From Alphaproteobacteria bacterium (lineage in GTDB: Bacteria > Pseudomonadota > Alphaproteobacteria > JASGCL01), in the NCBI GenBank assembly GCA_965262775.1, contig CBDHFT010000006.1:179883-243882 (forward strand): 64,000 bases of DNA. The letters run 5' to 3'. Shown piece after piece: positions 171-63,973 of this stretch (position 1 is its first letter; each line of letters starts with the position of its first letter). The position numbers were made by a program, and so were the translations under genes. The notes below the pieces were generated by a model. It did no database searches. It had not been told where the DNA came from and worked only from the letters and a program-made list of their open reading frames with translations.

Positions 171-2025
171 TTGGCGGGCGGGGTTGATGTGGTGGTGCCC
201 GTTCCCGCGGATCAAAATTTCTTCTTCACCGCCACCGATAGCGATGCCAGCAATATAATTTATTCGGTCAGCGGCACCGAAGCCGCCAATTTCACCGTGG
301 CCAGCAACGTCGATGGTATGAAGGGTAAGGGTAAATTAACATATATTGGCGATTTGGATTATGAAACCACCAGCCACACCCACACCGTGACGGTGGTGGC
401 AACGTCGGGCAATAATAGTGTAACCCAATTGTTTATATTGACAGTAACGGGTTTGAACGACGAAGCGGCGGTTTGGACCAACAGCAGTGCCAACGGCACA
501 ATTTCAGAAAATAACGTGGCGGGGGTTGCGTTGGCAACATTTACGGCCACCGACCCCGACGGCGCGGGCGTAACATATTCATTAACGGGCACCGACGCCA
601 ATTTGTTCAGTTTGGATTCCAGCGGCGGTTTGCATCTTAAATCGGCGTTGGATTATGAAGGAACATACAATGGCCACAATGGCCATGTATTCAGCGTTAT
701 TGTCAATGCGTGGGGCACCGCGGGTGGCACGGCGGGCAGCGCGGCGATTGGTTTTGGTGCCCACGGCCACGACCAAATTGTTTGTGTTAGGTTTGGGTAA
801 TATTAATGAATTCGCCACGGGTTTTGTTGGAACGTTAAGAAGTGGTGTTGCCATTAGCGAAAATAATGCGGTCGGGGTAACGGTGGCGAATTTCCGTGCA
901 ACCGATGGCGATGGGGTGACCGTGGATTATAGCGTGAGTGGCACCGACCCGAGCTACTTCAGCGTTGATACAAATGGTAATTTAAAATTAAAATCAAGTT
1001 TGGATTTTGAAGATAGTGTTCATACGGCGAAAAATTACAGCGTGACGGTGGTTGCAAAATCGACCGACGCCAGCGCGGCGATTAGCAGTGTGTTTGTGTT
1101 GAGTTTGGGTAATGTGAATGATAATGCGACAACGATTGGCGCAATGCACACCAGTGGCGCGGCGGTGGCAAAATCGGCCGCGGTGGCGGGATTATCGGTG
1201 GCGCATTTTGAATTGAACGATACAGATGGAACGGGTTTTGAATATAATGTGTGGAACTTGGCTGGTTCCACCGATGCGAATTCTTTCAGCATGGACAGTG
1301 TTGGCGGATTGCATATCAAAACCGCCCTGACAACATCAACCAAGGCATTTTATACCATGGTGGTGGGTGGCCACGGAACAAGCGGCGGCGCGGGAACGGG
1401 CGCGGCGGCTACGTGGGTATCGCAAACATTTATTTTCAGCCTGAATACCAGCGCGCAATTGGCCGACCACACGGCCTATATCGACGGCACCACGGCGACC
1501 CACGCGGTGAATGTGGGTGGCATTATTGGCCATGACGATGCAGGGAATATTGATTATGCCAATGTGCAATTCCATGGTGTTAATTATACCGATAAAGTCA
1601 TTACGCGCAATGTTGAACCCGATGGTTTGCAATTAACCACGGTGGATTATGTGGTGCGCGGGATTAGCGATTTGGAATCTTTACGCCTAAGTTTTAACGG
1701 CTTCACCGATACGGATGGTACTAAACGTAACCATTGGTTCTTCGTCCAGGATGATGCCACGGACCACAGCGGGCATATTGTGTTTGACGCCGATGGGCAG
1801 AATGTGAATTTACACGCTTTGAACAATGGCGGTGGTTTAGCAACTTCTGACCAAATTAATTTATTGGCTGGTTCAAATTACGGCATTGACGGCGATTTTA
1901 CCAAACCAACTGATTTAAATTTGAACTTGGCTTCTGACCCATTACATCAAAATACGGCGGGGGCATTGACCTTCGACCAATTCCTGGCCCTCCTCGGCGG
2001 GAATAATCACATCAGTTTTGTTTAG
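171..2025 (+). pseudogene. 3' portion of a giant cadherin-like-repeat adhesin (probable T1SS substrate), interrupted by a frameshift near 730-790 (ORFs 171..800 and 655..2025)
   Basis: Recurring ~100-aa units are present, e.g. ISENN(V/A)(A/V)GV...F.ATD.DG..V.YS(L/V)(T/S)GTD...F(S)(L/V)D..G.L.LKS.LD(Y/F)E......Y.V.V.A.S...LF(I/V)L.(V/L).G(L/V/I)N(D/E). The two ORFs are in different frames, and the repeat register continues across the junction. The C-terminus is Gly/Asp-rich, with a non-cleaved tail typical of type I secretion substrates. Confidence 0.6.
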
Positions 2026-4814: not shown

Positions 4815-7577
4815 ATGGCAAAGAAAAAAATATTAGCAGAGAAGAACACGACACCAAGTCGTAATGAAATGAAAAGCAGAGCCTTGGCATTTCAAAAAAG
4901 GTGGCAAATTGCTTCTAGTGAGTCTTCTGATAAACAAACTTTTTATAATGAATTTTTTAATATATTTGGAATTGATAGAAAAAAAGTTGCTATCTTTGAA
5001 CAGCAGGTTGAAAAATTAAACAACCGCCGTGGGTCTATAGATTTGTTTTGGCCAAAAAAACTTTTGGTGGAGCATAAATCAAAAGGCGTTGATTTGAAGA
5101 AAGCGGTTGAACAGGCTTATGATTATTGCCTTAATATTGAAAATGATTTGTTGCCTGAATTTTTGTTGGTATGTGATTTTCATGAATTTCGGTTAATAGA
5201 AATTGCTAATAAGCAAAAATATTATTTTACATTGCCAGAATTGCATGAAAAATTGCATCTATTTAATTTTATGACCGATTATAAAAAACAAAACATCGCC
5301 GAGCTTGACCCAATTAATTTAAAAGCGGCAGAACGCATGGGCGATCTTTATGATAATTTAAAAAATGATAATGCTTCACAAAAAGATTTAGAATTATTTT
5401 TGGTGCGTGTGCTTTATTGTTTGTTTGCCGATGATACAGATATATTTAAGAAAAAGATATTTCATGATTTGATTGATAAAAAAACAAGGAGTGATGGGTC
5501 AGATGTTGGCGACAGATTAGCCCATTTATTTCAAACCTTAAATACGCCAAAAGAAAAAAGACCCAGCACTTTAGATTTTGATTTAAATGACTTTGATTAT
5601 ATTAATGGTAAATTGTTTGCCGACACGATTAACATTTTATCTTTTAGCACATGGACAAGAACATATTTGATAAATTGTTGTTCGTTTGTTGAATGGCGAA
5701 AAATATCGCCCGCTATTTTTGGTTCATTGTTTCAATCAATTGCTGATAAGAAAAAAAGACGAAGCACGGGGGCGCATTATACATCGGAAAAAAATATTAA
5801 ACGCACCATTGAACCATTATTCTTAAATGACCTATGGGCAGAATTTCACAAAATAAAAAACAATACTAAACAATTACATGATTTCCATGATAAATTGGCA
5901 TCATTATATTTTTTTGACCCCGCCTGTGGTTGTGGTAATTTTTTGGTGGTGGCTTATCGTGAATTGCGAAAATTAGAATTAGAAATTTTAAAAATATTAT
6001 ATCCCGACACTGAGATAAATAAAAAAATAGATGTTAATGGTTTGTCAAAAATAGATGTAGACCATTTTTATGGGATAGAGATTGAAGAATTCCCCGCCAA
6101 TATTGCCCAAGTGGCTTTGTGGCTAACCGACCATCAAGCAAATTTAGAATTGTCAGAATATTTTGGCCAATATTACGCTAGGATACCATTAAAAAAATCG
6201 CCCAATATTACCTGTGGCAATGCCCTGACGCTGGATTGGCAAAAAATTTTATCCGCCAAACAATGTTCTTATATCATTGGCAATCCGCCATTTATTGGTG
6301 CTCGCCAAAAAGATGGCATGCAATCGAAAGAAATGGAAGATATATTTTCAGGAATAAAAGATTGGGGTAATTTGGATTATGTAACAGCATGGTATAAAAA
6401 AGCCGCCGAATATATCCATGGCACAAAAATTAAGGTGGGGTTTGTTGCCACCAATAGCATTACACAGGGTTTGCACGTTGGTATATTATGGAATAATTTA
6501 ATCAATCAACATGGTATTACCATTCATTTTGCCCATCAAACCTTTGCTTGGTCAAATGAAGCCACGGGTAAGGCGGCAGTTTATGTGGTGATAATCGGTT
6601 TTGCCAATTTTGATAGTGATAAAAAAATTCTATATGAATATGATGATATTAAGGGCGACCCAAATCAATCGCTAGTAAAATATATTAGTCCTTATTTATC
6701 TTCTAACAAAATGGATATTGCAATTAGCAGTCGTGAGAAGCCTTTATGCGATGTGCCAAAAATGTCGTTTGGTAGTATGCCCCGTGATGGTGGTTTTTTA
6801 ATTATAGAAAATGAGAAAGAAAAAGAACAATTGATAAATCATAATCCATTGGTAATAAAATATATTAAAAATTATATTGGGGCAGATGATTTTATCAATG
6901 GTTATAAAAGATATTGTTTATGGTTGGTGGATGCTGAGCCAAGTGATTTAAAAAAAATGCCCTTGGTGATGGAAAGAATAAAAAAAGTAAAAGAATTTCG
7001 GTTGGCGAGCAAAAAAACTGCAACCAGAAAATTTGCTGAAACTCCATCGTTATTTTGCGAACAACGACCCGCAAAAAGTAATTATTTATTAGTGCCACGG
7101 GTGTCATCGGAAAGGCGAAAATATATTCCCATAGGCTTTTTTAGCAAAGATAATATTGTAGCTGATAGTTGCTTAGCTATTGGCAACGCCACCCTCTACC
7201 ATTTTGGCATTTTGACTTCTGCCATGCACATGGCATGGGTAGCGCAAGTTTGTGGACGATTAAAATCAGATTTCCGTTATTCAAAAGATATTGTTTATAA
7301 CAATTTTCCATGGCCAAAGAATCCGCCCACAGACAAAATAAAAAAAATTGAATCCATCGCCCAAAGGATTTTGGATATTCGTAAAAAATATGAAAATAAA
7401 AATACCCTTGCCGATTTGTATGACCCCAATACCATGCCAAGCGATTTGTTAAAAACCCATGAGGATTTAGACAAATTGGTTGATGATTGCTACGGCTCCG
7501 CTGGTTTTGCCAGCAACGGCGATCGCCTCACCCATTTATTTAATTTGTATGAAGAATATATAAAAAATAAAAATTAA
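4815..7577 (+). CDS. MmeI-family Type IIL (IIG) restriction-modification enzyme, with endonuclease, gamma-class N6-adenine methyltransferase and target-recognition domains fused
   Basis: 920 aa, close to MmeI at 919 aa. The N-terminal nuclease D...E.K motif is intact (IDLFWPKKLLVEHKSKG). MTase motif I is FFDPACGCGNFLVVAYRELR and motif IV is IIGNPPFIGARQ. Long stretches are collinear with MmeI as I recall it (DPINLKAAERMG, ISPAIFGSLFQSI, GAHYTSE, FYGIEIEEFPANIAQVALWLTDHQ, TNSITQG, IIGF, YLLVPRVSSERRKYIPIGF, LYDPNTMPSDLLKTHEDLDKLVD). The gene is visibly more AT-rich than its flanks. Confidence 0.85.
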   Translation: MAKKKILAEKNTTPSRNEMKSRALAFQKRWQIASSESSDKQTFYNEFFNIFGIDRKKVAIFEQQVEKLNNRRGSIDLFWPKKLLVEHKSKGVDLKKAVEQAYDYCLNIENDLLPEFLLVCDFHEFRLIEIANKQKYYFTLPELHEKLHLFNFMTDYKKQNIAELDPINLKAAERMGDLYDNLKNDNASQKDLELFLVRVLYCLFADDTDIFKKKIFHDLIDKKTRSDGSDVGDRLAHLFQTLNTPKEKRPSTLDFDLNDFDYINGKLFADTINILSFSTWTRTYLINCCSFVEWRKISPAIFGSLFQSIADKKKRRSTGAHYTSEKNIKRTIEPLFLNDLWAEFHKIKNNTKQLHDFHDKLASLYFFDPACGCGNFLVVAYRELRKLELEILKILYPDTEINKKIDVNGLSKIDVDHFYGIEIEEFPANIAQVALWLTDHQANLELSEYFGQYYARIPLKKSPNITCGNALTLDWQKILSAKQCSYIIGNPPFIGARQKDGMQSKEMEDIFSGIKDWGNLDYVTAWYKKAAEYIHGTKIKVGFVATNSITQGLHVGILWNNLINQHGITIHFAHQTFAWSNEATGKAAVYVVIIGFANFDSDKKILYEYDDIKGDPNQSLVKYISPYLSSNKMDIAISSREKPLCDVPKMSFGSMPRDGGFLIIENEKEKEQLINHNPLVIKYIKNYIGADDFINGYKRYCLWLVDAEPSDLKKMPLVMERIKKVKEFRLASKKTATRKFAETPSLFCEQRPAKSNYLLVPRVSSERRKYIPIGFFSKDNIVADSCLAIGNATLYHFGILTSAMHMAWVAQVCGRLKSDFRYSKDIVYNNFPWPKNPPTDKIKKIESIAQRILDIRKKYENKNTLADLYDPNTMPSDLLKTHEDLDKLVDDCYGSAGFASNGDRLTHLFNLYEEYIKNKN

Positions 7578-8732: not shown

Positions 8733-10175
8733 ATGTTGCAAAAAAAAATTTACTCCTATGTTTTTGGCGGCGCCATGGCAACATTGTTGTTAACTGGTTG
8801 CGCCGATAACAAATTGACCCTGAGCGGGCAACGGCAAGTTATCGATATTGCATCGATAGACGATGTCCGCGCCAGCGATTCAAAACTTATCGGCGGTGGC
8901 TACAGCCTAACCCAGCCAGTCACCAACCAAGAATGGCGTTCGGCGTCGGGCGGTAACGACCGTCGCCCGCCCCACGCGCGCGGCGGCGAAAAAAACAAAA
9001 TAGCTTTTTACATAAAAATTGGCGCAGGCACGGGGAAATCCACCCTCTATCCCGCGTTCGATAAAGACGGCGATGAAAACCCCGAAACCCCGCGGGGCGA
9101 GGCTAATATAGTCAACATCGCCCCCATTGTTGCCGACAATAAAATTTTCGCCATCGACAGCCGTTATCAAATCACCGTGCTCGATTGGCAAAAAGATAGC
9201 GACCAGCCCAAAGTAAAATGGCGTTATCTTTTAAGCGAAGCCAACAATTACCTTGCCGCGACGGGCGGGGGCATGGCCTTCGCCAATGCTGGCGGCCCCG
9301 ATGGCAAAACCCCTTTGTTGGTGGTGACCACGGGGTTTGGTAAAGTATACGCCTTTAACGCCAACACGGGCGATGTGGTTTTTCAACAAAATCTTATCAG
9401 CCCGATTAAAAATTCGGCGGCCATCACCGACAGCCTAGCCATTGTTAAAACCATCGACGGTTCGGTTTATGGTTTGTCATTGCGCGACGGGCGTAAGGTT
9501 TGGCAAAATAATAGTTTGCTGGCCGATGGCGGCGTGATTGATGCCATTGGGTTTAAGGGTGGATCCGCCCCCACCGCCAGCGCGGGACGGGTGTGGACGG
9601 GTTTTTTGTCGGGTAATGTGATGGCTTTGAACGGCGCGTCGGGCAATATATTATGGCAAGATGGCACGATGAAATTCAGCATAGGCGACAGCAACCGTTA
9701 TCGCGAAATTATTGGCAACATGATGCTTGACGGCGGGGTTATCTATGCCTTCAGCTTTGGTTCCGACGCCATTGCCTTCCGCGCCGATGGTGGCGGTAAA
9801 TTGTGGCGCAAACGTTTGGCGACCATCGAAAACCCGACCATGAATAACCAAACAATTTTTATTATCGACAGCGATTACAATTTGAAAGCCATTAATAAAG
9901 CGACAGGCAATTTATTTTGGAGCCGTATCCTTGAAAAATATCAATACCCTGGCACGCGAACTTTGACATTGGTCGATTGGCATGGCCCGTTGTTGGTAAG
10001 CAAAAGATTGTTTCTGGCAAATAATATAGGGCAATATATGTTCGTCAATGCCCTGAACGGCAACATGATAGAGCAGGGCCAAGATGATATATATAAACTT
10101 GACTCCCCCGCCATCGCGGCCAAAAACACCATTTTGTTTGTCAACAGCATGGGATATTTGGTGGGGATTCAATAG
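8733..10175 (+). CDS. bamB: Outer membrane protein assembly factor BamB (PQQ-like beta-propeller lipoprotein)
   Basis: The lipobox LLTGC follows a signal peptide. Repeated beta-propeller blades carry W/YG motifs. It sits downstream of the yfgM-like gene. Confidence 0.8.
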   Translation: MLQKKIYSYVFGGAMATLLLTGCADNKLTLSGQRQVIDIASIDDVRASDSKLIGGGYSLTQPVTNQEWRSASGGNDRRPPHARGGEKNKIAFYIKIGAGTGKSTLYPAFDKDGDENPETPRGEANIVNIAPIVADNKIFAIDSRYQITVLDWQKDSDQPKVKWRYLLSEANNYLAATGGGMAFANAGGPDGKTPLLVVTTGFGKVYAFNANTGDVVFQQNLISPIKNSAAITDSLAIVKTIDGSVYGLSLRDGRKVWQNNSLLADGGVIDAIGFKGGSAPTASAGRVWTGFLSGNVMALNGASGNILWQDGTMKFSIGDSNRYREIIGNMMLDGGVIYAFSFGSDAIAFRADGGGKLWRKRLATIENPTMNNQTIFIIDSDYNLKAINKATGNLFWSRILEKYQYPGTRTLTLVDWHGPLLVSKRLFLANNIGQYMFVNALNGNMIEQGQDDIYKLDSPAIAAKNTILFVNSMGYLVGIQ

Positions 10176-17306: not shown

Positions 17307-18839
17307 TTACAGTTGCGTCGCGGGCAACTTGATAGGATAACGTTTGCGCAATTCAACATCCAAGGCTGGGTCAATGAAGGAATGCGGCGGCATGGCAAGA
17401 ATTTTTTCTTTGATGGCGCGCGCCTTTTCCAAAGCGGTTGGCTTGTTATTGGCTTCCCATTCTTTGGGTGATGAGCGGTCAAAGGTTTTGGGATAAAAAT
17501 AATCCTTTTGCATAACGCGTAAAGTTTGGTCGGCCCCCAAGAAATGCCCTGGGCCGTCGATGCAAACCGAACGGATGGTGTCTAAACTCAATAATTCTTC
17601 GGTGACCTCTATGCCACGAATGATACGGCTGGTCGAACCCAAAACATCATTGTCCAATATCAAACTTTCCAAGCAGAACCCGAGCAAACTGGCGTGCATG
17701 CCCGCCGATTCGTAAACCAAATTAGCCCCCGATTGCGCCACAATGGCGTGGTTATAGGCCTTTTCTGCGCCAGCCTGGTAATCAGGAATTTTTGAATCGG
17801 CCATGCCCGAAGCAACGGCGTTGATAAGCCCAAGATGCCTGCCAATTTCTGCTACGCCAGCCATCAACAATGATTGTTCGGCCGAACCGCCGCTCATGGC
17901 GCCCGTGCGCAGGTCGCTAACAAATGGCCAAGCACCAAACATGGCGGGTGCCCCTGGCTTCACGGCGTTAACATAAAATAATCCCGCCAAAACTTCGGCG
18001 GCGGATAGGGTTACCGAGCCCACCAAGGTGGCGGGGCTGGTCGCACCCGCCTGGCCCGCTGATATTAATAAAATAGGCATGCCTTCCAACGCGGCGCGTT
18101 CCAAGCAACGGCAGGCATCTTGCGCAAATTTTAATGGCGGCACCACAAAGCAACAGGATTGCGACACGAAAGGACGCGCCAGCCATTGTTCTTTGCCACC
18201 CGCAATTTCATGCAACATGGCCAAGGATAAATCAAAATGTTTGGTATCAACCCACGAAGTGCCAACATGTTTGCGCGAACCGCGCACCGAGGCATAGCAG
18301 GTGTTAAAATCCATATCCAATGGGTCGGGCAAGTCACGTGGCACCAACGAGCGTTGATAAAAATGGATGTTATCCATGTGGTCGCAGATTTTGGATGAAT
18401 GATAAAGATCTTCCAACACCGATTCGCGATATTCGTTGGTTAGGGCGTCGACCATATGCACCGCGGCACCCGCCGTGCCGTAATAAACGCGGTCATCGTA
18501 GGGGTCTAAATCCCATTCGGGGTCCAAGCCAAATAATGTAAATTTTTTATTGGCAACGGCAAGCATATCCAGCACCGCATTTTTGGGGAAACAAAGACGG
18601 TTATTTTTAACAACCGCGCCTATTTTTTGGCAATATTCTATGGTCGAGGGTAAGGCCTCGGCAAAGCCGATATTTTCCAATATGTTTAGAGCGCTTTCGA
18701 CAATTTTTGATCTTTCTTCGGCGGTAAATAATTTTAAACGCCCCGATTTCATGCCACGCCAAATGGGTTGCAGGTCGGTTTGTAAGGGGGCTTGTCTTGC
18801 GGCAACGCGCGATGCGCGGCCGCCCATTCTTAGTGACAT
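17307..18839 (-). CDS. MttB-superfamily methyltransferase without pyrrolysine (glycine-betaine/quaternary-amine:corrinoid methyltransferase-like, MtgB-type)
   Basis: 510-aa uninterrupted ORF with a TIM-barrel MttB fold. A long collinear region (ILENIGF...HMVDAL...SGGSAEQSLLMAGVAEIGRHLGL...YESAGMHASLLG) is typical of trimethylamine-methyltransferase-family proteins. There is no in-frame amber codon. Confidence 0.75.
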   Translation of the reverse strand: MSLRMGGRASRVAARQAPLQTDLQPIWRGMKSGRLKLFTAEERSKIVESALNILENIGFAEALPSTIEYCQKIGAVVKNNRLCFPKNAVLDMLAVANKKFTLFGLDPEWDLDPYDDRVYYGTAGAAVHMVDALTNEYRESVLEDLYHSSKICDHMDNIHFYQRSLVPRDLPDPLDMDFNTCYASVRGSRKHVGTSWVDTKHFDLSLAMLHEIAGGKEQWLARPFVSQSCCFVVPPLKFAQDACRCLERAALEGMPILLISAGQAGATSPATLVGSVTLSAAEVLAGLFYVNAVKPGAPAMFGAWPFVSDLRTGAMSGGSAEQSLLMAGVAEIGRHLGLINAVASGMADSKIPDYQAGAEKAYNHAIVAQSGANLVYESAGMHASLLGFCLESLILDNDVLGSTSRIIRGIEVTEELLSLDTIRSVCIDGPGHFLGADQTLRVMQKDYFYPKTFDRSSPKEWEANNKPTALEKARAIKEKILAMPPHSFIDPALDVELRKRYPIKLPATQL

Positions 18840-19027: not shown

Positions 19028-20182
19028 TTATTGCGCAAAAATAAATAGGCCTTTTTTTTCTATCACCGCCCGCACTTTATCCCCAACCTTAAAACGCCGC
19101 GGGTTGGCATGGTCGGTAAGCAAACGACTATGAATATGGAACGGGGTGTTGGGCGATGTATTGTCGGTATAGGCATCGTTATGGCATTGCCAATGGATGA
19201 GCAGGTGATTGCCCAAAAACCTTACCTCCACCACTTCGCCTGTTATCTCGCTGGCTATTTTTGTTGCTGTGGTTTTTTTTATTTCTTCTCCCATGCTAAG
19301 ATTGATAAGGTCGATGGCGTCCGCCCTTATAACCACCTCAACCATTTTGTTGCCAGCGTCTTTTGTTAAGGTTTCGGACGACAATGTGCCAAGCGGGGTT
19401 ACGACCTTTCCTTGGCTCACAACGCCTGCAAAACGATTAACCTCCCCAAATACTGACGCAACGAAGGGACTTTTGGGATGATAATATAGGTCGAGGGGTT
19501 GGCCTTGCTGTTGTAATTTTTGTTCGTGCAATATGGCCATGGTGTCGCTCATGAACATGGCTTCCTCCGCCGAGTGCGTAACCAATAGGGTGGCGATTTT
19601 GTTTTCTTCTAAAAAATGGAGGAGCCAATCGCGCAACTCATCGCGCACCCGTTCGTTAAGCGATGAAAAGGGCTCATCCATCAATATTAATTTGGAGCCT
19701 GGCGCCAAGGCACGCGCCAAGGCCACCCGCTGTTGTTCGCCACCCGACAATTGGTGGGGGTAACGATCGAACAGCTGCTCTAAGCCAACTTTTTTCAATA
19801 AATTCTGCACCAAAGATTTTTTATCAAGCGCGGTTAATTGTCGATTGCGTTGGATGCCGAAAGCAATATTGTCATAAACATTCAAATGGGGAAACAATGC
19901 GATGTCTTGAAACAACAGCCCCAAACCGCGTTGTTCGGGCGGTAAAACAAAACGCTGGTCCGAAACCAATTCGCCGTTGATGAAAATTTGTCCGCTGGTT
20001 GGTTTTTCTAAACCCAGGGCCAAGCGCAATATGGTGGTTTTGCCCGACCCCGAAGGCCCAAGCAAAGACATGACGCTGTTGCTGGGCACCGAAAAAGATA
20101 CGCCCTGTAATATTTTTTCTTTACCGTTGGATTTGCGATAAGAAAAATGGACATCGCGAAATTCTAAAATATTTTTTGCCAT
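19028..20182 (-). CDS. fbpC: ABC transporter ATP-binding protein, Fe3+/polyamine type, with a C-terminal TOBE domain
   Basis: Walker A GPSGSGKTT, Q-loop, signature LSGGEQQRVALARAL, Walker B LILMDEPFSSLD-like and H-loop. The C-terminal ~120 aa form a TOBE/MOP-like domain. Confidence 0.9.
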   Translation of the reverse strand: MAKNILEFRDVHFSYRKSNGKEKILQGVSFSVPSNSVMSLLGPSGSGKTTILRLALGLEKPTSGQIFINGELVSDQRFVLPPEQRGLGLLFQDIALFPHLNVYDNIAFGIQRNRQLTALDKKSLVQNLLKKVGLEQLFDRYPHQLSGGEQQRVALARALAPGSKLILMDEPFSSLNERVRDELRDWLLHFLEENKIATLLVTHSAEEAMFMSDTMAILHEQKLQQQGQPLDLYYHPKSPFVASVFGEVNRFAGVVSQGKVVTPLGTLSSETLTKDAGNKMVEVVIRADAIDLINLSMGEEIKKTTATKIASEITGEVVEVRFLGNHLLIHWQCHNDAYTDNTSPNTPFHIHSRLLTDHANPRRFKVGDKVRAVIEKKGLFIFAQ

Positions 20183-26659: not shown

Positions 26660-27045
26660 AAAAAGAAGGGTTTCTGTTGCTGGGAAACCCTTCAAGACCC
26701 CACCTATCGGGTATGAGCCGACAGGAATTCTGAGATGCACTCTTAAGCCACTCTAGGCAGCAAGAGCAACACCCCTTTCATTGTCATTGGCATTTATAGC
26801 CTTTGAAGCTCTCTTAACCCCTTTATTATAAATAATATCAAGGCGGCGAACTTAATACCGAACGCAAATCATAACCTTTATCACGCCTGTCTAGCCTGTT
26901 TCACCCCCATAATTTTACCCTGTCACTTTGATTTTTTAAGTAAGCCCACAAGTTTTTTTTATGGTGGAGGTGCCGAGTACTGCCCTCGGGTCCAGAACGT
27001 CTATGCCGTTTGATTTGATAGCGTCATAGTCCTGCCAAAGCAGAA
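26660..27045 (-). ncRNA. ssrA: Two-piece (circularly permuted) tmRNA gene ssrA: acceptor piece, spacer, then coding piece encoding tag ANDNERGVALAA
   Basis: Read on the minus strand. The acceptor piece ends ...CUCGGCACCUCCACCA (CCA at plus 26963-26965). The coding piece begins GGGGGUGAAACAGGCUAGACAGG (plus 26908 downward), compare E. coli GGGGCUGAUUCUGGAUUCGACGGG. GGGGGUG pairs with CACCUCC, giving a G3-U70 alanine identity pair. The tag reading frame is GCC AAU GAC AAU GAA AGG GGU GUU GCU CUU GCU GCC UAG, giving ANDNERGVALAA (plus 26753-26791). A 9-bp stem plus U-tract terminator lies at 26664-26691. Upstream promoter is TTGACA-17-TATATC. There is no ORF of 60 aa or longer in this 480-bp gap. 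Confidence 0.85.
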
Positions 27046-27053
27046 CAATATAT

Positions 27054-27082
27054 GATATACTACGCCATGAAAAAAATGTCAA
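27054..27082 (-). promoter_or_regulatory. Sigma70-type promoter of ssrA (TTGACA, 17-bp spacer, TATATC) on the minus strand
   Basis: The minus strand reads TTGACAtttttttcatggcgtagTATATCatatattg. -35 lies at plus 27077-27082. Confidence 0.5.
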
Positions 27083-27133
27083 TCTGCGCCCCATAACCAC
27101 TTCGCCGCTTAACCAGCCTGTTTATCATCAACC

Positions 27134-43335: not shown

Positions 43336-43860
43336 ATGACAAAAAATAAATTGGGATTTATTTTTTTACCATCGCGCAGTTTGTTGCCGCGCTTTTTCAT
43401 GCCTGCCTCGCCATTTTTTTTGGTTGGTTTTTTATTTTTTTTCCTGACTTTTGCCTTAGCACCCGCCTTTGCCCTAAGCAATGACGAAAAGGAAATGTTG
43501 CGCGCCGCCGCCGAGGGGGATGCCGATATTGTCGCCCGATTAATCAAGAAAAATATTGATGTTAATACGGCGGATGAAAAGGGCGAAACATCGCTGCTGA
43601 AGGCCGCTTACAATAAAAATAATAACACGGTGCGCGTGCTTTTGGCGGGGGGCGCAAACCCTAACCAAGCCGATAAGGAAGGCAATACCCCCATCATGGC
43701 CGCGGCTTGGCAGGGGGAGGCTGACATCGTCGCCATGCTCATCACGGCGGGCGCCAATGTTAGGGCAAGAAATAATGGTGGATACAATGCCATGATAGCC
43801 GCGTCGGTTTGGGGTTACCGCGATGTTATAAAATTATTAAGGACCGCGGGGGCTGACTAA
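43336..43860 (+). CDS. Secreted ankyrin-repeat protein (4 ANK repeats)
   Basis: The likely true start is Met at 43399, giving a Sec signal (MPASPFFLVGFLFFFLTFALAPAFA-LS). It is followed by ANK repeats: LLKAAYNKNNNTVRVLLAGGANPNQADKEGNTPIMAAAWQGEADIVAMLITAGANV. Confidence 0.75.
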   Translation: MTKNKLGFIFLPSRSLLPRFFMPASPFFLVGFLFFFLTFALAPAFALSNDEKEMLRAAAEGDADIVARLIKKNIDVNTADEKGETSLLKAAYNKNNNTVRVLLAGGANPNQADKEGNTPIMAAAWQGEADIVAMLITAGANVRARNNGGYNAMIAASVWGYRDVIKLLRTAGAD

Positions 43861-49597: not shown

Positions 49598-51065
49598 CCA
49601 ACAATTATCATCGGCCCTGGGCCGCGCATGTCATTTGCAAACTGGCGGGGCGGAAGGATTCGTTATTGATAGCCGACAGATTAAGCCAGGTGATATTTTC
49701 CTGCCGCTTATTGGCACCAAGCAAGATGGCCATGATTATATAGAACAGGTTATTAACCAAGGGGCGGCAGGCAGTTTATGCTTGCGAGGGGTTATCAAAA
49801 ATTATCCAACCAACATGCAAGAAAAATTGATAGCCAGCGACGATATCATGGCGGATATTATAAAACTTGCCCGTTATCGCCGCGATGAAATAAAAAAAAA
49901 TGGTGGCAAGGTTTTGGCGATTACGGGGTCGGTGGGCAAAACATCGGCCAAAGAAATGATTGGCCATGTGTTAGAAAAAACGGGTGAGTATTATTATAAA
50001 TCCCCCGCCAATCAAAATAATACCCTGGGCGTGCCGTTATGTTTGATTAACAGCCGCGCCGATATCAAGGCGGGGGTTTATGAATGCGGCATGAATCATC
50101 GGGGCGAATTGCTACAGATTGGTGAAACCCTGCGCCCCGATATTGTCGTCATCACCAACATTCGTGAAAACCATATTGGTTATTTGGGCAGTTTGCAGGG
50201 CATTGCCGAGGCTAAGGGTGAATTGCTGGAATATATGATGCCCGATGCACCCATGGCGATATTAGAAAAACCACGCGAAGCAAAATATAATTTTTTTGAT
50301 TTTCTATCGCAGAAATTTAAACAACATCACCCTGGCGCGAAAGTGATTGCGGTGGGCGAAGGCGAAGATTGCGATGTGCAATTATTGTCGGTGGCGTCGC
50401 ACCTGGGTCATGGGCAAGAAATCAAAGCAAAGTTTTTTAAACAGGGGCTAGATTACTCATTGAACTTGATTGGTGCGCACCAAGGTTTCAACAGCCTGCT
50501 CGCCCTGGCCGCCGTGAATTATCTTTTGGTGGATGAAAATAGCGCGCCAAGCGAAGGCCAATTAAAAACCTGGGCAGCAGCATTGATTGATTACCGACCG
50601 ATAGCGGGGCGGGGGAAGCCCGATGTGTTAAACACTCCCCATGGAAGGATATGTTTGATAGATGAATCATATAACGCGGCGCCAGCCTCGATGCTAGCCA
50701 GCCTGCAAGCCTTGAATAGTTATGTCGAACCCATGCTTGCCACCGCGCCGCCATCGCGCCTTGCTATCTTGGGCGACATGAAAGAATTGGGAAAAGATGA
50801 AATAGAATATCATCAACAAATAATAAGCCAAGCAACAGCCATGGCTGGGATTGGGCGGATTATATTGGTCGGGCCATTGATGATTCAAGCCTACAGCAGC
50901 ATGGAAAAAAATGACAAAATCATTGCACGGGATGATGCAACCCAAGTGATGACTCAACTGGAAGGAAATATCAGCCATGGTAGCATTATCATGGTCAAGG
51001 CCTCGCATTCTATGGGGCTTGAAAAAATTGTCAAATACCTGCAAGAGAAGTCAGCCAATAATTAA
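49584..51065 (+). CDS. murF: UDP-MurNAc-tripeptide:D-Ala-D-Ala ligase MurF
   Basis: ITGSVGKTS P-loop. Mur ligase central and C-terminal domains. Position between murE and mraY. Confidence 0.9.
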   Translation: MLWTNQQLSSALGRACHLQTGGAEGFVIDSRQIKPGDIFLPLIGTKQDGHDYIEQVINQGAAGSLCLRGVIKNYPTNMQEKLIASDDIMADIIKLARYRRDEIKKNGGKVLAITGSVGKTSAKEMIGHVLEKTGEYYYKSPANQNNTLGVPLCLINSRADIKAGVYECGMNHRGELLQIGETLRPDIVVITNIRENHIGYLGSLQGIAEAKGELLEYMMPDAPMAILEKPREAKYNFFDFLSQKFKQHHPGAKVIAVGEGEDCDVQLLSVASHLGHGQEIKAKFFKQGLDYSLNLIGAHQGFNSLLALAAVNYLLVDENSAPSEGQLKTWAAALIDYRPIAGRGKPDVLNTPHGRICLIDESYNAAPASMLASLQALNSYVEPMLATAPPSRLAILGDMKELGKDEIEYHQQIISQATAMAGIGRIILVGPLMIQAYSSMEKNDKIIARDDATQVMTQLEGNISHGSIIMVKASHSMGLEKIVKYLQEKSANN

Positions 51066-52213: not shown

Positions 52214-53589
52214 ATGTTACTGCCTTCTTATCAAAAAAATAAGAAAAAAATATACGTGGTTGGGCTTGGCTTGACGGGGTTGGCGGCTATCAAAACTTTA
52301 ACAACGGCGGGGGCAGAAATTGTTGCCTTCGATGACGATGAAAAAAATCGCCTTGCCGCCAGCCAAGCCAATATTCCTTTGCTCGCCCCCAATGACTGGC
52401 AAGCCAGCGATGGTGTGGATATATTGTTGCTCTCGCCTGGCATCCCCGCCGAAACATCGCGGCTAAAATGGCGCACCCCGCGGCTTTGCGCGCGCGCTCT
52501 CTTGGTGTGCCCATCATGGTGGATGTTGATTTGTTATTTAACGAATGGCATGGGCAACGCGATTTTGTTTTTATCACGGGCACCAACGGCAAATCCACCA
52601 CCACCAAATTAATAACCCATATCTTGGCTGACAATCATTTGCCCGCGGTGATGGGCGGCAATATTGGCGCGGCGGCACTTTCGCTGCCCGCCTTACCCGA
52701 CAAGGGTATTTATGTTTTAGAATTAAGCTCCTACCAATTGGAACGCATGGTTGCGCCCGTGCCACAGGTTGCGGTGCTGCTCAATTTGTCCTTTGATCAT
52801 TTGGAACGCCATGATACGATGGAAAAATATCTTGCTATCAAAACAAAGATTTTTTCTTCGGCGGTGGATGTTGCGAAATTATCCATCATCGGGGTGGACG
52901 ATGAATTTTGTCGCGCCTATTACGAACAGAACAAAGGTCGATTAAACTTGGTGCCTATCTCGGGTCTAACCCTGCCCGCGGGGGGCGTGGGGGTTCGGGA
53001 TGGGCAGTTGGTTGATGCACGCCGCGATAAAAACCTTGGCGCCTTGCCCTTTCATCCCGCGCTGCAGGGGCCGCATAATGCACAGAACATGGCGGCGGCA
53101 TATTTGGTGGCGGATTATTATGGTTTGGATATCAAAAATATTATATCGGCGACGCAAGGTTTCATGCCACTGCCGCATCGCCAAGAAATGGTGGCAAGCA
53201 TGGCGGGCGTGCAATATATCAACGACAGCAAAGCAACCAATGTTGACGCCAGTTTAAAATCCTTGAGCAGTTTTAATAATATTCGTTGGTTAGCGGGCGG
53301 GCAATTAAAAAGTGGCGACCGATTTGCTGACCTTAAGAACGTCGCAAGCCATGTTACCAAAGGTTATTTTTTTGGCGAAGGGGCAAGAAAATTGCAAGCA
53401 GAAGTCATGGAAGAAATCCCGAGTGCGGTTTTTAACAATTTGGCGGAAGCCCTGACCGCGGCGCACCAAGACGCGCAGGCGGGCGATGTTGTGTTGTTGT
53501 CGCCCGTGGGTGCAAGTTTCGACCAATATAAAAATTTTGAAGAACGTGGCAATGATTTTAAAAAACAAGTTTTAAATTTACAAAAATAA
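52214..53589 (+). CDS. murD: UDP-MurNAc-L-Ala:D-Glu ligase MurD, interrupted by a single frameshift in an A4 run (52465-52468)
   Basis: ORF 52214..52612 carries the N-terminal Rossmann domain (VVGLGLTGLAA...LLSPGIP). ORF 52468..53589 continues with HPAALRA...ITGTNGKSTT and the rest of MurD in frame -1. One extra A (A5) would give ...SPGIPAETSRLKMAHPAALRA. Confidence 0.8.
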
Positions 53590-53592
53590 AAT

Positions 53593-54675
53593 ATGGCACG
53601 TTTATTATTCACCCGCGCGGATAGAGGATTGCTTGCCCGTTGGCGGTGGTCGGTTGATATTGGCACCATCGTGTTGGTTTTTTTATTGATGGCGATTGGG
53701 TTGTTGGCGGTATCGTCGAGCATGGCCAACACCAACACCCCGCCCAATGTTTTTGTTAAGCATATTGTTTTGTCATTACTGCTATCATAACCATGCTGGG
53801 GGTGAGTTTTTATCGCCCCGTCAGGTTAAGGCCTTTTCGGGCGTGTTATTTTTTGTTGCCCTGGCCTTGATGATTTTAATATTGCTTAAGGGTGGGCAAG
53901 AAGCAAAGGGGGCGCGGCGTTGGCTGTCGCTTTTTGGATTTGCCTTGCAGCCTTCTGAATTTATTAAACCCAGCCTGGCCGTGTTGTTTGCCAATTTGTT
54001 TGTGCTGGGCAAAAAACAACAACAGGCGATATTTTATGGCTTGGCGGCTTTTATTTTGTTGGTGGTGGCGGGTTTGTTATTATCGCAACCCGATATCGGT
54101 ATGACCATGTTGGTATGTTCGACATTTTTGATTATTTTATTTTTTGCGGGCACGCCGTTTCGTTCATATTTCCGCTGTTCATTCGCCGCCCTGGTTCTGG
54201 TGGTGGTGGTTTATTATGTTTTTCCGCATGTGCAGGACAGGATATTACATGTGAATGATTACCAAGTAAAAAAATCGCTGGCGGCCTTCGCCAATGGTGG
54301 TTTTTTGGTGTGGGTTTGGGTAATGGGGTTGTTAAATTAACCCTGCCCGATGTTCACACCGATTTTATTTTGGCTTTGTTGGGGGAGGAGTTGGGCTTGG
54401 TGCCGACCTTGCTGATTATGGCTATTTACCCGACCATCATTTTGAAATGTTTTAAGCGGCTTTATGAAAGCAAGAATAATTTTGTTATTATTGCGGGCGG
54501 GGGTTTAACCTGTCAATTTGGCTTGATGGCGCTTATTAATATTTTTAGCGCGCTTGGCCTGGGACCAACCAAGGGCTTAACCTTGCCCTTCATTTCTTAC
54601 GGTGGTTCGGCGATGATGGCGAGCGCGCTGAGCATGGGGTTTTTATTGGCACTAACGCGACAAAAAAATGATTAA
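53593..54675 (+). CDS. ftsW: Peptidoglycan glycosyltransferase / lipid II flippase FtsW, split over frames 1, 0, 2 and 1 by three homopolymer frameshifts
   Basis: SEDS-family segments were found in four pieces: (a) WSVDIGTIVLVFLLMAIGLLAVSSS...FVKH; (b) in frame 0, ITAIITMLGVSFYRPVRL; (c) ARRWLSLFGFALQPSEFIKP; (d) GNGVVKLTLPDVHTDFILALLGEELG...TKGLTLPFISYGGS. The shifts occur at T4, T4 and T6 runs. A T7 run at the last site would restore NGGFFGVGLGNG. Confidence 0.75.
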
Positions 54676-55865
54676 AAAAATAATGAAAGCAAAAACCATG
54701 TCGCCATCATCAAAACAATATAAGATATTGCTGGTTTCGGGCGGCACGGGCGGGCATAGTTTTCCCGCCCTGGCGGTGGCGCGGTTGCTTGCCCAACATG
54801 GCCATGCCCCCAGCATTATATGCGAACAACGCGGCTTCGAATATTTTAAGCAGGCTATGGACCAAGAAAAATTAAACTGCCCGATATATTGTTTACCGTT
54901 AAAAAGTCCGCAAGGCGGCAAAGTAAAAAAAATAATATCCGCCCTGTCGCTCTTGACCAGTATTTTGCCTGCCGCGAAATTGTTGCGCCGTGAACGCCCC
55001 GATATATTATTGGGGTTTGGTGGTTACATGATGATACCCAGTTTTTTGGCGGCGCGCCTAGGCCGTGTGCCCCATGTTTTTTTGGAACAAAATGCGGTGA
55101 TGGGTCGCGCTAATCGTTTGTTTAAATCATCCGCCGCGGCGATAGCCACGGGGTTGCCAACCTGCCGCGGGTTGAGCAAGCGAGAAAAAGCAAAAACTCA
55201 TTTTGTTGGCACGCCCATCAAGCAAGAATTCTTACAAGTGGGCGAGGGCGCAGGTCATAAAACTAACAAAAAAAAATATCACCATATTGGTGACGGGTGG
55301 TTCCCAGGGGGCAAAGGTCTTTGCCGATATTGTCCCCCGCGCCATAGAAAAATTGTTAAAAAAATTGGATGGCACGGCGATAACTATTCACATTCAACAA
55401 CAATGCAAGGCCGAGCAAATCAAGGATTTGGCCATTGCCTATAATAACTTGGGCGTGAAGCATGACATCAAAGATTTTTTTTATGATGTGCCACAAAAAT
55501 TGGCAACGGCGGATATTTTTATTGGCCGCGCGGGGGCATCAACCATAGCCGAGGTTGCCAGCATGGCAAAACCTTGCATCCTTATTCCCTTTCCTTTCGC
55601 GACCGACAATCACCAATATTATAACGCGCGGTTGTTGGCCGATAAAAAATCTTGCCGCTTGCTTAGCGAAAAGAAAAACAAAACCATCGCCGATACCGAA
55701 CAATTAAGCGAAGCCTTGGCCGATGAATTGCTTGACCTTATCCTCCACCCCAAACATCGCCAGCAATTGGCCAGCAATATTAAAAATTTTGCTCAAAAAA
55801 ATGCTGGTGCTGAATTGATGAAATTGGCTATAAGCGTGGCAAAACAACATAAAAAATTGGCATAA
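54668..55865 (+). CDS. murG: UDP-GlcNAc:undecaprenyl-PP-MurNAc-pentapeptide GlcNAc transferase MurG, frameshifted at an A9 run (55268-55276)
   Basis: N-terminal half ORF 54668..55444 (GGTGGH...VGTPI.QEF). C-terminal half ORF 55203..55865 (ILVTGGSQGA...). The frames meet in AACAAAAAAAAATAT; with A8 the product reads ...GHKTNKKNITILVTGGSQGAKVF. Confidence 0.8.
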
Positions 55866-63696: not shown

Positions 63697-63973
63697 ATGC
63701 AATTTAAGAAAGCTATTTTTTTACTCTTTACCTTGGGAATTCTTTACGGGATTACCAACACGGCCTTGCAAACCTACCGCTTGTTTAAAAAAAAACCAAG
63801 AGATAGCAGCATTAAAGAATCAGCAAAAACAATGGCAAGAAAAAAACCAAATCTTAGGCAAAAAAATAAAATCGTTGGATAGCACCCATCCCGATAAAGA
63901 TTTTTTGGAAGAACTAGCGCGCGAAAAATTGGGCTACAATTATTCTGATGATATCCATTTAAAAGACCATTAG
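63697..63973 (+). CDS. ftsB: FtsB/DivIC-like septum formation initiator, frameshifted at an A9 run (63787-63795)
   Basis: The 61-aa ORF stops early. With A8 the frame continues as MQFKKAIFLLFTLGILYGITNTALQTYRLFKKNQEIAALKNQQKQWQEKNQILGKKIKSLDSTHPDKDFLEELAREKLGYNYSDDIHLKDH, that is TM, coiled coil, then the FtsB C-terminal DPDYIEELARE.LG motif, ending at the TAG at 63971. Confidence 0.65.

Follow-up and report, generated by a model that had tools for sequence, protein, structure and literature searches.

The interruption of murG at an A9 tract in an alphaproteobacterial dcw cluster is probably a local consensus indel error

The DNA analysed here, a stretch of 64 kb referred to as the window, has a GC content of 46% and carries a canonical dcw cluster, which extends from approximately 44 kb to the end of the window. 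The cluster comprises mraZ, rsmH, an ftsL-like gene, ftsI, murE, murF, mraY, murD, ftsW, murG, murC, murB, ddl, ftsQ, ftsA, ftsZ and a DivIC/FtsB-like gene. With the gene order ftsW-murG-murC, murG (54668 to 55865) is found in its expected place. As deposited, it is not an uninterrupted open reading frame, since the frame switches at a run of nine A (A9, 55268 to 55276). Breaks were also located in murD, ftsW and the DivIC/FtsB-like gene and, probably, in a gene for a cadherin-repeat protein near the start of the window. The affected features, with the state in the closest relative (L001, see below) where the two were compared, are as follows:

171 to 2025, plus strand: cadherin-repeat protein gene; probable frame change near 745 to 790, where the longest run is T4
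52214 to 53589, plus strand: murD; 1-nt deletion at about 52465 (GGCT-AAAA, compared to GGGTGAAAA in L001), no long homopolymer
53593 to 54675, plus strand: ftsW; five 1-nt indels compared to L001
54668 to 55267, plus strand: N-terminal (acceptor-binding) domain of MurG and interdomain linker, frame a; TIGR01133 match, GGTGGH
55268 to 55276, plus strand: A9 tract with the frame change in murG; A8 in L001, coding for Lys-Lys of a variable Lys/Asn-rich linker
55277 to 55865, plus strand: C-terminal (UDP-GlcNAc-binding) domain of MurG, frame a+1; TIGR01133 match, GGSQGA
63697 to 63973, plus strand: DivIC/FtsB-like septum-formation gene; frameshift at an A9 run (63787 to 63795), A8 in L001

Twelve genes of the cluster (mraZ, rsmH, ftsI, murE, murF, mraY, murC, murB, ddl, ftsQ, ftsA and ftsZ) are intact, and the remaining genes of the window, approximately 50, are full length, as checked or inferred from profile coverage or ORF structure. 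Suspicious ORF overlaps at gshA/rsmE, pncC and DciA/trmD/rplS were inspected for breaks; none was found and all of these genes are intact. The 3' segment of murF, which could not be aligned, is a divergent in-frame mosaic in which no hidden frameshift was found.

The two parts of murG are encoded in adjacent frames, as an earlier note made from the sequence had described, and the coordinates of the junction given there were borne out. The ORF at 54668 to 55444 (258 amino acids) matches profile positions 3 to 175 of TIGR01133 (the murG equivalog), while that at 55203 to 55865 (220 amino acids, +1 frame) matches positions 175 to 351. Taken separately, both fragments score below the cutoff of 250.25 bits (107.8 and 136 bits). 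The A9 tract lies within ACAAAAAAAAATAT. Removal of a single A leads to a MurG of 398 amino acids (...GHKTNKKNITILVTGGSQGAK...), which matches TIGR01133 in one stretch (positions 3 to 351 of 353) with 252.4 bits, so that the seamless, conserved protein predicted in the earlier note was indeed obtained. The repaired protein can be aligned along its length to the solved MurG structures 3s2u, 7d1i and 1f0k, and the glycine-rich motifs of both Rossmann-like domains are present (SGGTGGHSFPA in the N-domain and VTGGSQGAK in the C-domain).

Relatives were sought by scanning species-representative genomes for MurC. The collections searched contain one relative at the species level and a few that are more distant. 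The former, L001 (OZ241918.1), is an alphaproteobacterial MAG chromosome of 1.63 Mb, whose MurC is 97% identical; it is collinear with the window over approximately 17 kb at 93.7% nucleotide identity. In L001, MurD (458 amino acids), FtsW (361), MurG (403) and the FtsB-like protein (91) are all intact. The genes murD, ftsW and murG are also intact in the more distant relatives L028 (74% MurC identity) and L034 to L036 (62% MurG identity). The murG frameshift was not found in any relative examined (L001, L028, L034 to L036), each of which encodes MurG in one frame; it is therefore not programmed. In a base-by-base alignment with L001, the frame is broken exclusively by 1-nt indels on the side of the window, and all remaining coding indels are multiples of three. 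Across the murG junction, the only difference in length from L001 is A9 versus A8, which places the break inside the A-run itself rather than just near it. In all relatives the junction falls into a variable, Lys/Asn-rich interdomain linker, and repair to A8 restores exactly the length found in L001. In search of a second, independent assembly of this organism, exact-protein look-ups were run with MurC, the MurG N-fragment, MraY, MurB and Ddl; none gave a match. A search of 5.8 billion proteins returned nothing above 62% identity, and a scan of JGI metagenomes revealed no relative.

The position of the break raises the question whether the N-domain and the C-domain of MurG might be made as individual polypeptides. 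The halves meet at profile position 175, which is a domain boundary, and they match families of split enzymes (PssD for the N half and PssE for the C half). In this respect the locus resembles the split GT-B glycosyltransferases Alg13/Alg14, PssD/PssE and Cps14F/Cps14G, which are likewise divided between the N- and the C-domain. Unlike in these systems, the split is not conserved, and the orthologues are fused in all relatives; the arrangement was absent from each one examined. Moreover, there is no evident start for the C-fragment, for which only TTG at 55203 or 55206 would be available, and the N-fragment would bear an out-of-frame tail of 56 amino acids. The TTG codons are not preceded by an SD-like motif, which is uninformative, since only about 10 of the 56 genes in the window carry one. 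That the break falls into the linker is explained by the location of the A-tract coding for Lys-Lys. An Alg13/Alg14-like MurG was thus considered and is regarded as extremely unlikely.

The earlier note overlooked the breaks in murD and ftsW directly upstream of murG, as well as the probable one in the cadherin-like gene. The 1-nt differences from L001 in the dcw region are the following:

52465, murD: deletion at a non-homopolymer site
53768, ftsW: T5 to T4
53807, ftsW: T6 to T5
54163, ftsW: T3 to T2
54182, ftsW: T1 to T2
54301, ftsW: T7 to T6
55268, murG: A8 to A9
63787, ftsB-like gene: A8 to A9

The fragments of murD match TIGR01087 at positions 1 to 79 and 76 to 440, and after repair of one base the product matches positions 1 to 440 of 441 with 358.7 bits. 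The deposited ftsW is spread over at least three frames, of which two fragments match TIGR02614 (58 to 236 and 239 to 356). The repaired FtsW matches this profile in one stretch (4 to 356 of 357; 279.7 bits, which is below the equivalog cutoff of 337.5) and regains the segment 'FRFIFPLFIAAL' of L001. Across 54163 to 54182, FtsW of the distant relatives (L028 and L034 to L036) supports the frame of L001. In the cadherin-like gene, the ORFs at 171 to 800 and 655 to 2025 overlap in different frames and both match PF00028; the periodicity of the cadherin repeats is unbroken across the frame change at about 745 to 790, and from the sequence this gene is judged to be probably broken as well.

The claim of the earlier note that an ftsB-like gene is broken in the same manner at another A9 run proved correct. 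At 63787 to 63795 the frame of a transmembrane helix passes into that of a coiled coil, and the repaired product is a protein of the DivIC/FtsB family. Its counterpart in L001 has A8 and an intact ORF of 91 amino acids, which matches PF04977 (DivIC) with 44.4 bits (cutoff 28.9). In-frame A8 runs, also mentioned in the earlier note, do occur elsewhere, for example at the 3' end of an fbpC-like ABC ATPase gene (T8 at 19052 to 19059, minus strand). Conserved A7 to A9 tracts are unusually abundant in this genome. Coding A/T runs of at least 8 nt number 40 in the window, and 38 of them are in frame; in the alignment with L001, 31 A7/T7, 5 A8/T8 and 2 A9 runs are the same in both genomes. Since most long runs are in frame and the shared A8/T8 and A9 runs agree with L001, long runs are not systematically miscalled.

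The 1-nt indels, about nine in the whole window, are not evenly distributed. Seven of them fall into 2.8 kb (52465 to 55276) out of 16.7 kb aligned, which has a probability of approximately 1.6e-4 under uniform placement, and five of these seven, all in ftsW, lie within 530 bp. Expressed as the density of frameshifts in the dcw region, the broken genes contain 7 in 3.6 kb, versus 0 in approximately 15 kb for the intact ones. Most indels are found at T-runs of one to seven bases or at a non-homopolymer site. The alteration of T1 to T7 runs next to unchanged A7/T7 to A9 runs does not follow run length in the way that replication slippage in vivo would. Between 52.4 and 55.3 kb, substitutions are as frequent as in the flanks and show the same ts/tv ratio, and an origin of this patch as a recombinant or divergent segment was rejected on these grounds. 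A systematic error linked to a sequence motif (GTTCAT for GTTT(T)AT, perhaps via an MmeI-type methyltransferase) was rejected as well, because the TTCAT/TTTAT differences occur in both directions and are ordinary synonymous changes of Phe codons.

All broken genes except the cadherin-like one, four out of five, are members of a single functional module (dcw), and several breaks per gene, as seen in ftsW, are typical of dead genes. Furthermore, the genome of L001 is small (1.63 Mb) and an ankyrin-repeat protein hints at an association with a host. These observations would fit an ongoing loss of peptidoglycan synthesis or septation from this lineage, in which murD, ftsW, murG and also ftsB are genuine recent pseudogenes. 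The state of the genes argues against this. With the frames restored, no internal stop codons are found in murD, ftsW or murG, and the broken genes show no excess of substitutions and no larger deletions. Compared to L001, dN/dS is 0.155 for murD, 0.132 for ftsW and 0.172 for murG, compared with 0.05 to 0.20 for the intact neighbours. When amino-acid changes were polarised with outgroups (L028 and L034), murD, ftsW and murG together had 12 window-specific and 10.5 L001-specific changes, and the intact genes 18 and 15, respectively. Neither dN/dS nor the polarised changes thus gave any sign of relaxed selection in the broken genes, and an excess of window-specific amino-acid changes is likewise missing. 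The rest of the dcw cluster is intact, and the genes from ftsI to ftsZ that were compared with L001 are under purifying selection, with the dN/dS of 0.05 to 0.20 given above. The confinement of the frameshifts to 3.6 kb, next to about 15 kb free of them, also speaks against gene decay, as does the fact that T1 to T5 sites are altered while nearby A7/A8 runs are untouched, which replication slippage does not predict. Genuine pseudogenes are therefore held to be very unlikely.

The A9 tracts of murG and ftsB deserve separate consideration, since the break in murG lies precisely in a tract of nine A, a length with documented transcriptional slippage in bacteria (PMC5009743, PMC3017870). Both might be real, recent A8 to A9 mutations caused by replication slippage, with some functional protein still being made. 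Rescue would proceed via slippage of RNA polymerase on A9/T9, yielding A8 or A11 transcripts, or via ribosomes shifting on AAA-AAA-AAA. Products of a -1 and of a +2 change would both be in frame, and A11 would add merely one Lys to the variable Lys/Asn-rich linker. In addition, murG is otherwise perfectly conserved, and the unusual richness of the genome in conserved A7 to A9 tracts would suit such a mechanism. Bacterial RNA polymerase is known to slip on A/T runs of approximately 9 nt (PMC5009743), and this property has been called upon to explain frameshifted poly(A) genes in Blochmannia and Buchnera, where approximately 30% of the transcripts were full length (PMC3017870). As in the genes of these endosymbionts reported to be rescued by slippage (Tamas et al. 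2008, as cited in PMC3017870 and PMC5009743), a single-base indel is located in an A tract of at least 9 nt, and murG is essential, otherwise intact and of low dN/dS (0.172).

Several differences weigh against this comparison. The frameshifts of Buchnera and Blochmannia are verified on DNA and are often conserved across strains or species, whereas in L001 the tracts of murG and ftsB each consist of eight A and are in frame. Unlike the genomes of these endosymbionts (approximately 26 to 30% GC), the window has 46% GC. The premise of the earlier note that this is a reduced endosymbiont genome found no support in that value or in the 1.63-Mb chromosome of L001. Slippage could not rescue the adjacent murD and ftsW, whose six indels lie at sites that are not long enough for it. 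Repair of the frame in murG would require a change of -1 or +2, yet transcription errors at A/T runs are mostly insertions, single-base deletions being rarer (PMC5574713). In Buchnera, a transcriptome-wide study found no transcription error that restored a reading frame (PMC5574713).

Programmed transcriptional slippage is known from dnaX of Thermus with its A9, the mxiE and spa genes of Shigella and IS630-type transposases (reviewed in PMC5009743). The murG locus shares with these cases a slippery run of 9 A/T, and function would likewise reside in the trans-frame product. It differs in that their out-of-frame layout is kept across relatives and usually provides two useful products, whereas the layout of murG is unique to this assembly and its zero-frame product would be an incomplete enzyme ending in nonsense sequence.

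The neighbouring genes bear on the matter in a further way. Without MurD, no UDP-MurNAc-pentapeptide is formed and hence no lipid I is available for MurG. If murD is broken, MurG has no substrate, and a rescue of murG alone would be pointless. Altogether, real A9 mutations with some functional protein still made are considered unlikely. The combined assumption that both A9 tracts are real and expressed via slippage of RNA polymerase or sliding of ribosomes, while the indels in murD and ftsW are separate assembly noise, appears quite unlikely. Of the rescue proposed in the earlier note, the length of the A9 tract stands as sufficient; the proposal is weakened by the missing conservation of the frameshift and by the breaks in murD and ftsW, which are beyond the reach of slippage.

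The earlier note had left open whether slippage or a homopolymer error accounts for the split murG. The A8 tract in L001, the six other indels in the patch, the lack of relaxed selection and the A8 to A9 change in ftsB favour the error. Judged on sequence comparison, the A9 in murG is probably a local consensus indel error in what is probably a long-read metagenome assembly. The tract is one of about nine 1-nt slips, five of which lie beside it in ftsW, and this makes an assembly error its most likely origin. If the indels in murD and ftsW are errors, the adjacent A9 is, by parsimony, most simply an error as well. The A9 would then represent the overcall by one base of a true A8 in the MAG consensus, and the seven residual 1-nt errors would form a low-quality patch of 2.8 kb over murD, ftsW and murG. 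The eighth, in the ftsB-like gene, would be a separate homopolymer overcall from A8 to A9. The cause presumably lies in sequencing or assembly, and the patch may reflect locally low depth or failed polishing.

Gene calls split by residual indels are a documented failure of long-read MAGs, and such indels occur mainly in homopolymers and especially below approximately 40x depth (PMC9262707). The situation described here resembles such consensus errors of Nanopore or PacBio data (Sereika et al. 2022, PMC9262707) in that only 1-nt indels occur, several of them in A/T runs, and that adjacent-frame ORFs become full length after repair of one base. The patchy distribution, the intact relatives and the absence of decay also agree with these errors. 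Unlike typical long-read errors, 38 of the 40 long coding runs are in frame here, and the errors are few and confined mostly to one patch.

Two further observations concern the A9 tracts and run counter to an artefact. Expansion from A8 to A9 is the commonest real frameshift mutation at tracts of this kind. The A9 breaks in murG and ftsB are also of another type than the indels at short runs in ftsW and murD, and their origin could differ.

Real A9 tracts in murG and ftsB would be of moderate interest, because the genome is not AT-rich and nevertheless contains many conserved A7 to A9 coding tracts. They would extend the phenomenon known from Buchnera and Blochmannia beyond AT-rich insect endosymbionts to an alphaproteobacterium with 46% GC and a genome of approximately 1.6 Mb, providing a new host lineage for the leaky rescue of poly(A) frameshifts. 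Under the favoured explanation of a consensus error, the split of murG would be no real biological feature. The assembly needs polishing, above all between 52.4 and 55.3 kb, and, if the breaks are artefacts, annotation of murD, ftsW, murG and ftsB as pseudogenes should be avoided in this MAG, and neither a loss of the cell wall nor a recoding mechanism should be deduced from the split genes. All four genes would most probably be intact and ordinary in the organism, and no recoding mechanism would then be required for their expression.

171-2025, plus strand: cadherin-repeat gene, as two overlapping ORFs in different frames, each matching PF00028 (Cadherin)

The repeat pattern of this gene (...VTVVA.S...F.L.LGN.N[DE].A) runs on from frame 3 into frame 1, with the frame change located near 745-790, where the longest run is a T4. 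Judged from its sequence, the cadherin gene is probably the fifth gene in the window broken by a 1-nt indel, besides murD, ftsW, murG and the DivIC/FtsB-like gene.

A/T homopolymers are far commoner in the window than its composition predicts (51 runs of at least 8 nt per 64 kb). Their length distribution has a shoulder at 6-7 nt and falls steeply after 8-9 nt, and no run exceeds 9 nt. Most of the runs of at least 8 nt (40 out of 51) are coding, mainly with A on the sense strand, corresponding to Lys codons. Despite 6% divergence, A/T runs are kept between the window and the close relative L001. Several A8 runs were also found in murG of relatives in which this gene has 39% and 52% GC (genomes compared: L001 and the more distant L028 and L034). 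The regions upstream of predicted gene starts in the window are A-rich, and an SD-like motif was found within -20 to -5 at only about 10 of the 56 predicted starts, some of which are perhaps misassigned.

Approximately 50340-50990 (4384-5100 in L001): 3' third of murF, divergent in the comparison with L001

MurF shares about 95% identity with its L001 counterpart in the first approximately 250 residues and in the last approximately 30, compared to roughly 40-50%, with several indels, in the C-terminal third preceding the latter. The divergent segment keeps the reading frame in both genomes, and this steep drop of identity within an in-frame gene suggests a mosaic or recombinant stretch inside an essential gene. 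The end of ftsW and the beginning of murG share 8 nt. At the 5' end of murG, L001 carries a 15-nt in-frame direct repeat (TGAAAGCAAAAAAAG; 8801-8815) missing at window position 54684.

4815-7577, plus strand: type IIL restriction-modification enzyme of the MmeI family, complete, with each of the five MmeI Pfam domains present
17705-17804, minus strand: match (42.8 bits, gathering threshold 38) to the Rfam model PYLIS_3, which describes the mttB pyrrolysine insertion sequence
26662-27086, minus strand: tmRNA gene of the alphaproteobacterial permuted (two-piece) type, tag peptide ANDNERGVALAA

The MmeI-family gene lies in a low-GC island (37-39% at 4-8 kb versus 46% for the window overall), which points to a probable horizontal acquisition. 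The PYLIS_3 match falls within an MttB-superfamily ORF (17307-18839, minus strand), a non-Pyl homologue in that it contains no in-frame stop, and is probably due to conservation of the coding sequence.

43336-43860, plus strand: small ankyrin-repeat protein, weakly similar to AnkY and AnkH, two Dot/Icm effectors of Legionella

The ankyrin-repeat gene contains two T8 runs, both in frame, and its product hints, though weakly, that the organism lives in association with a host.
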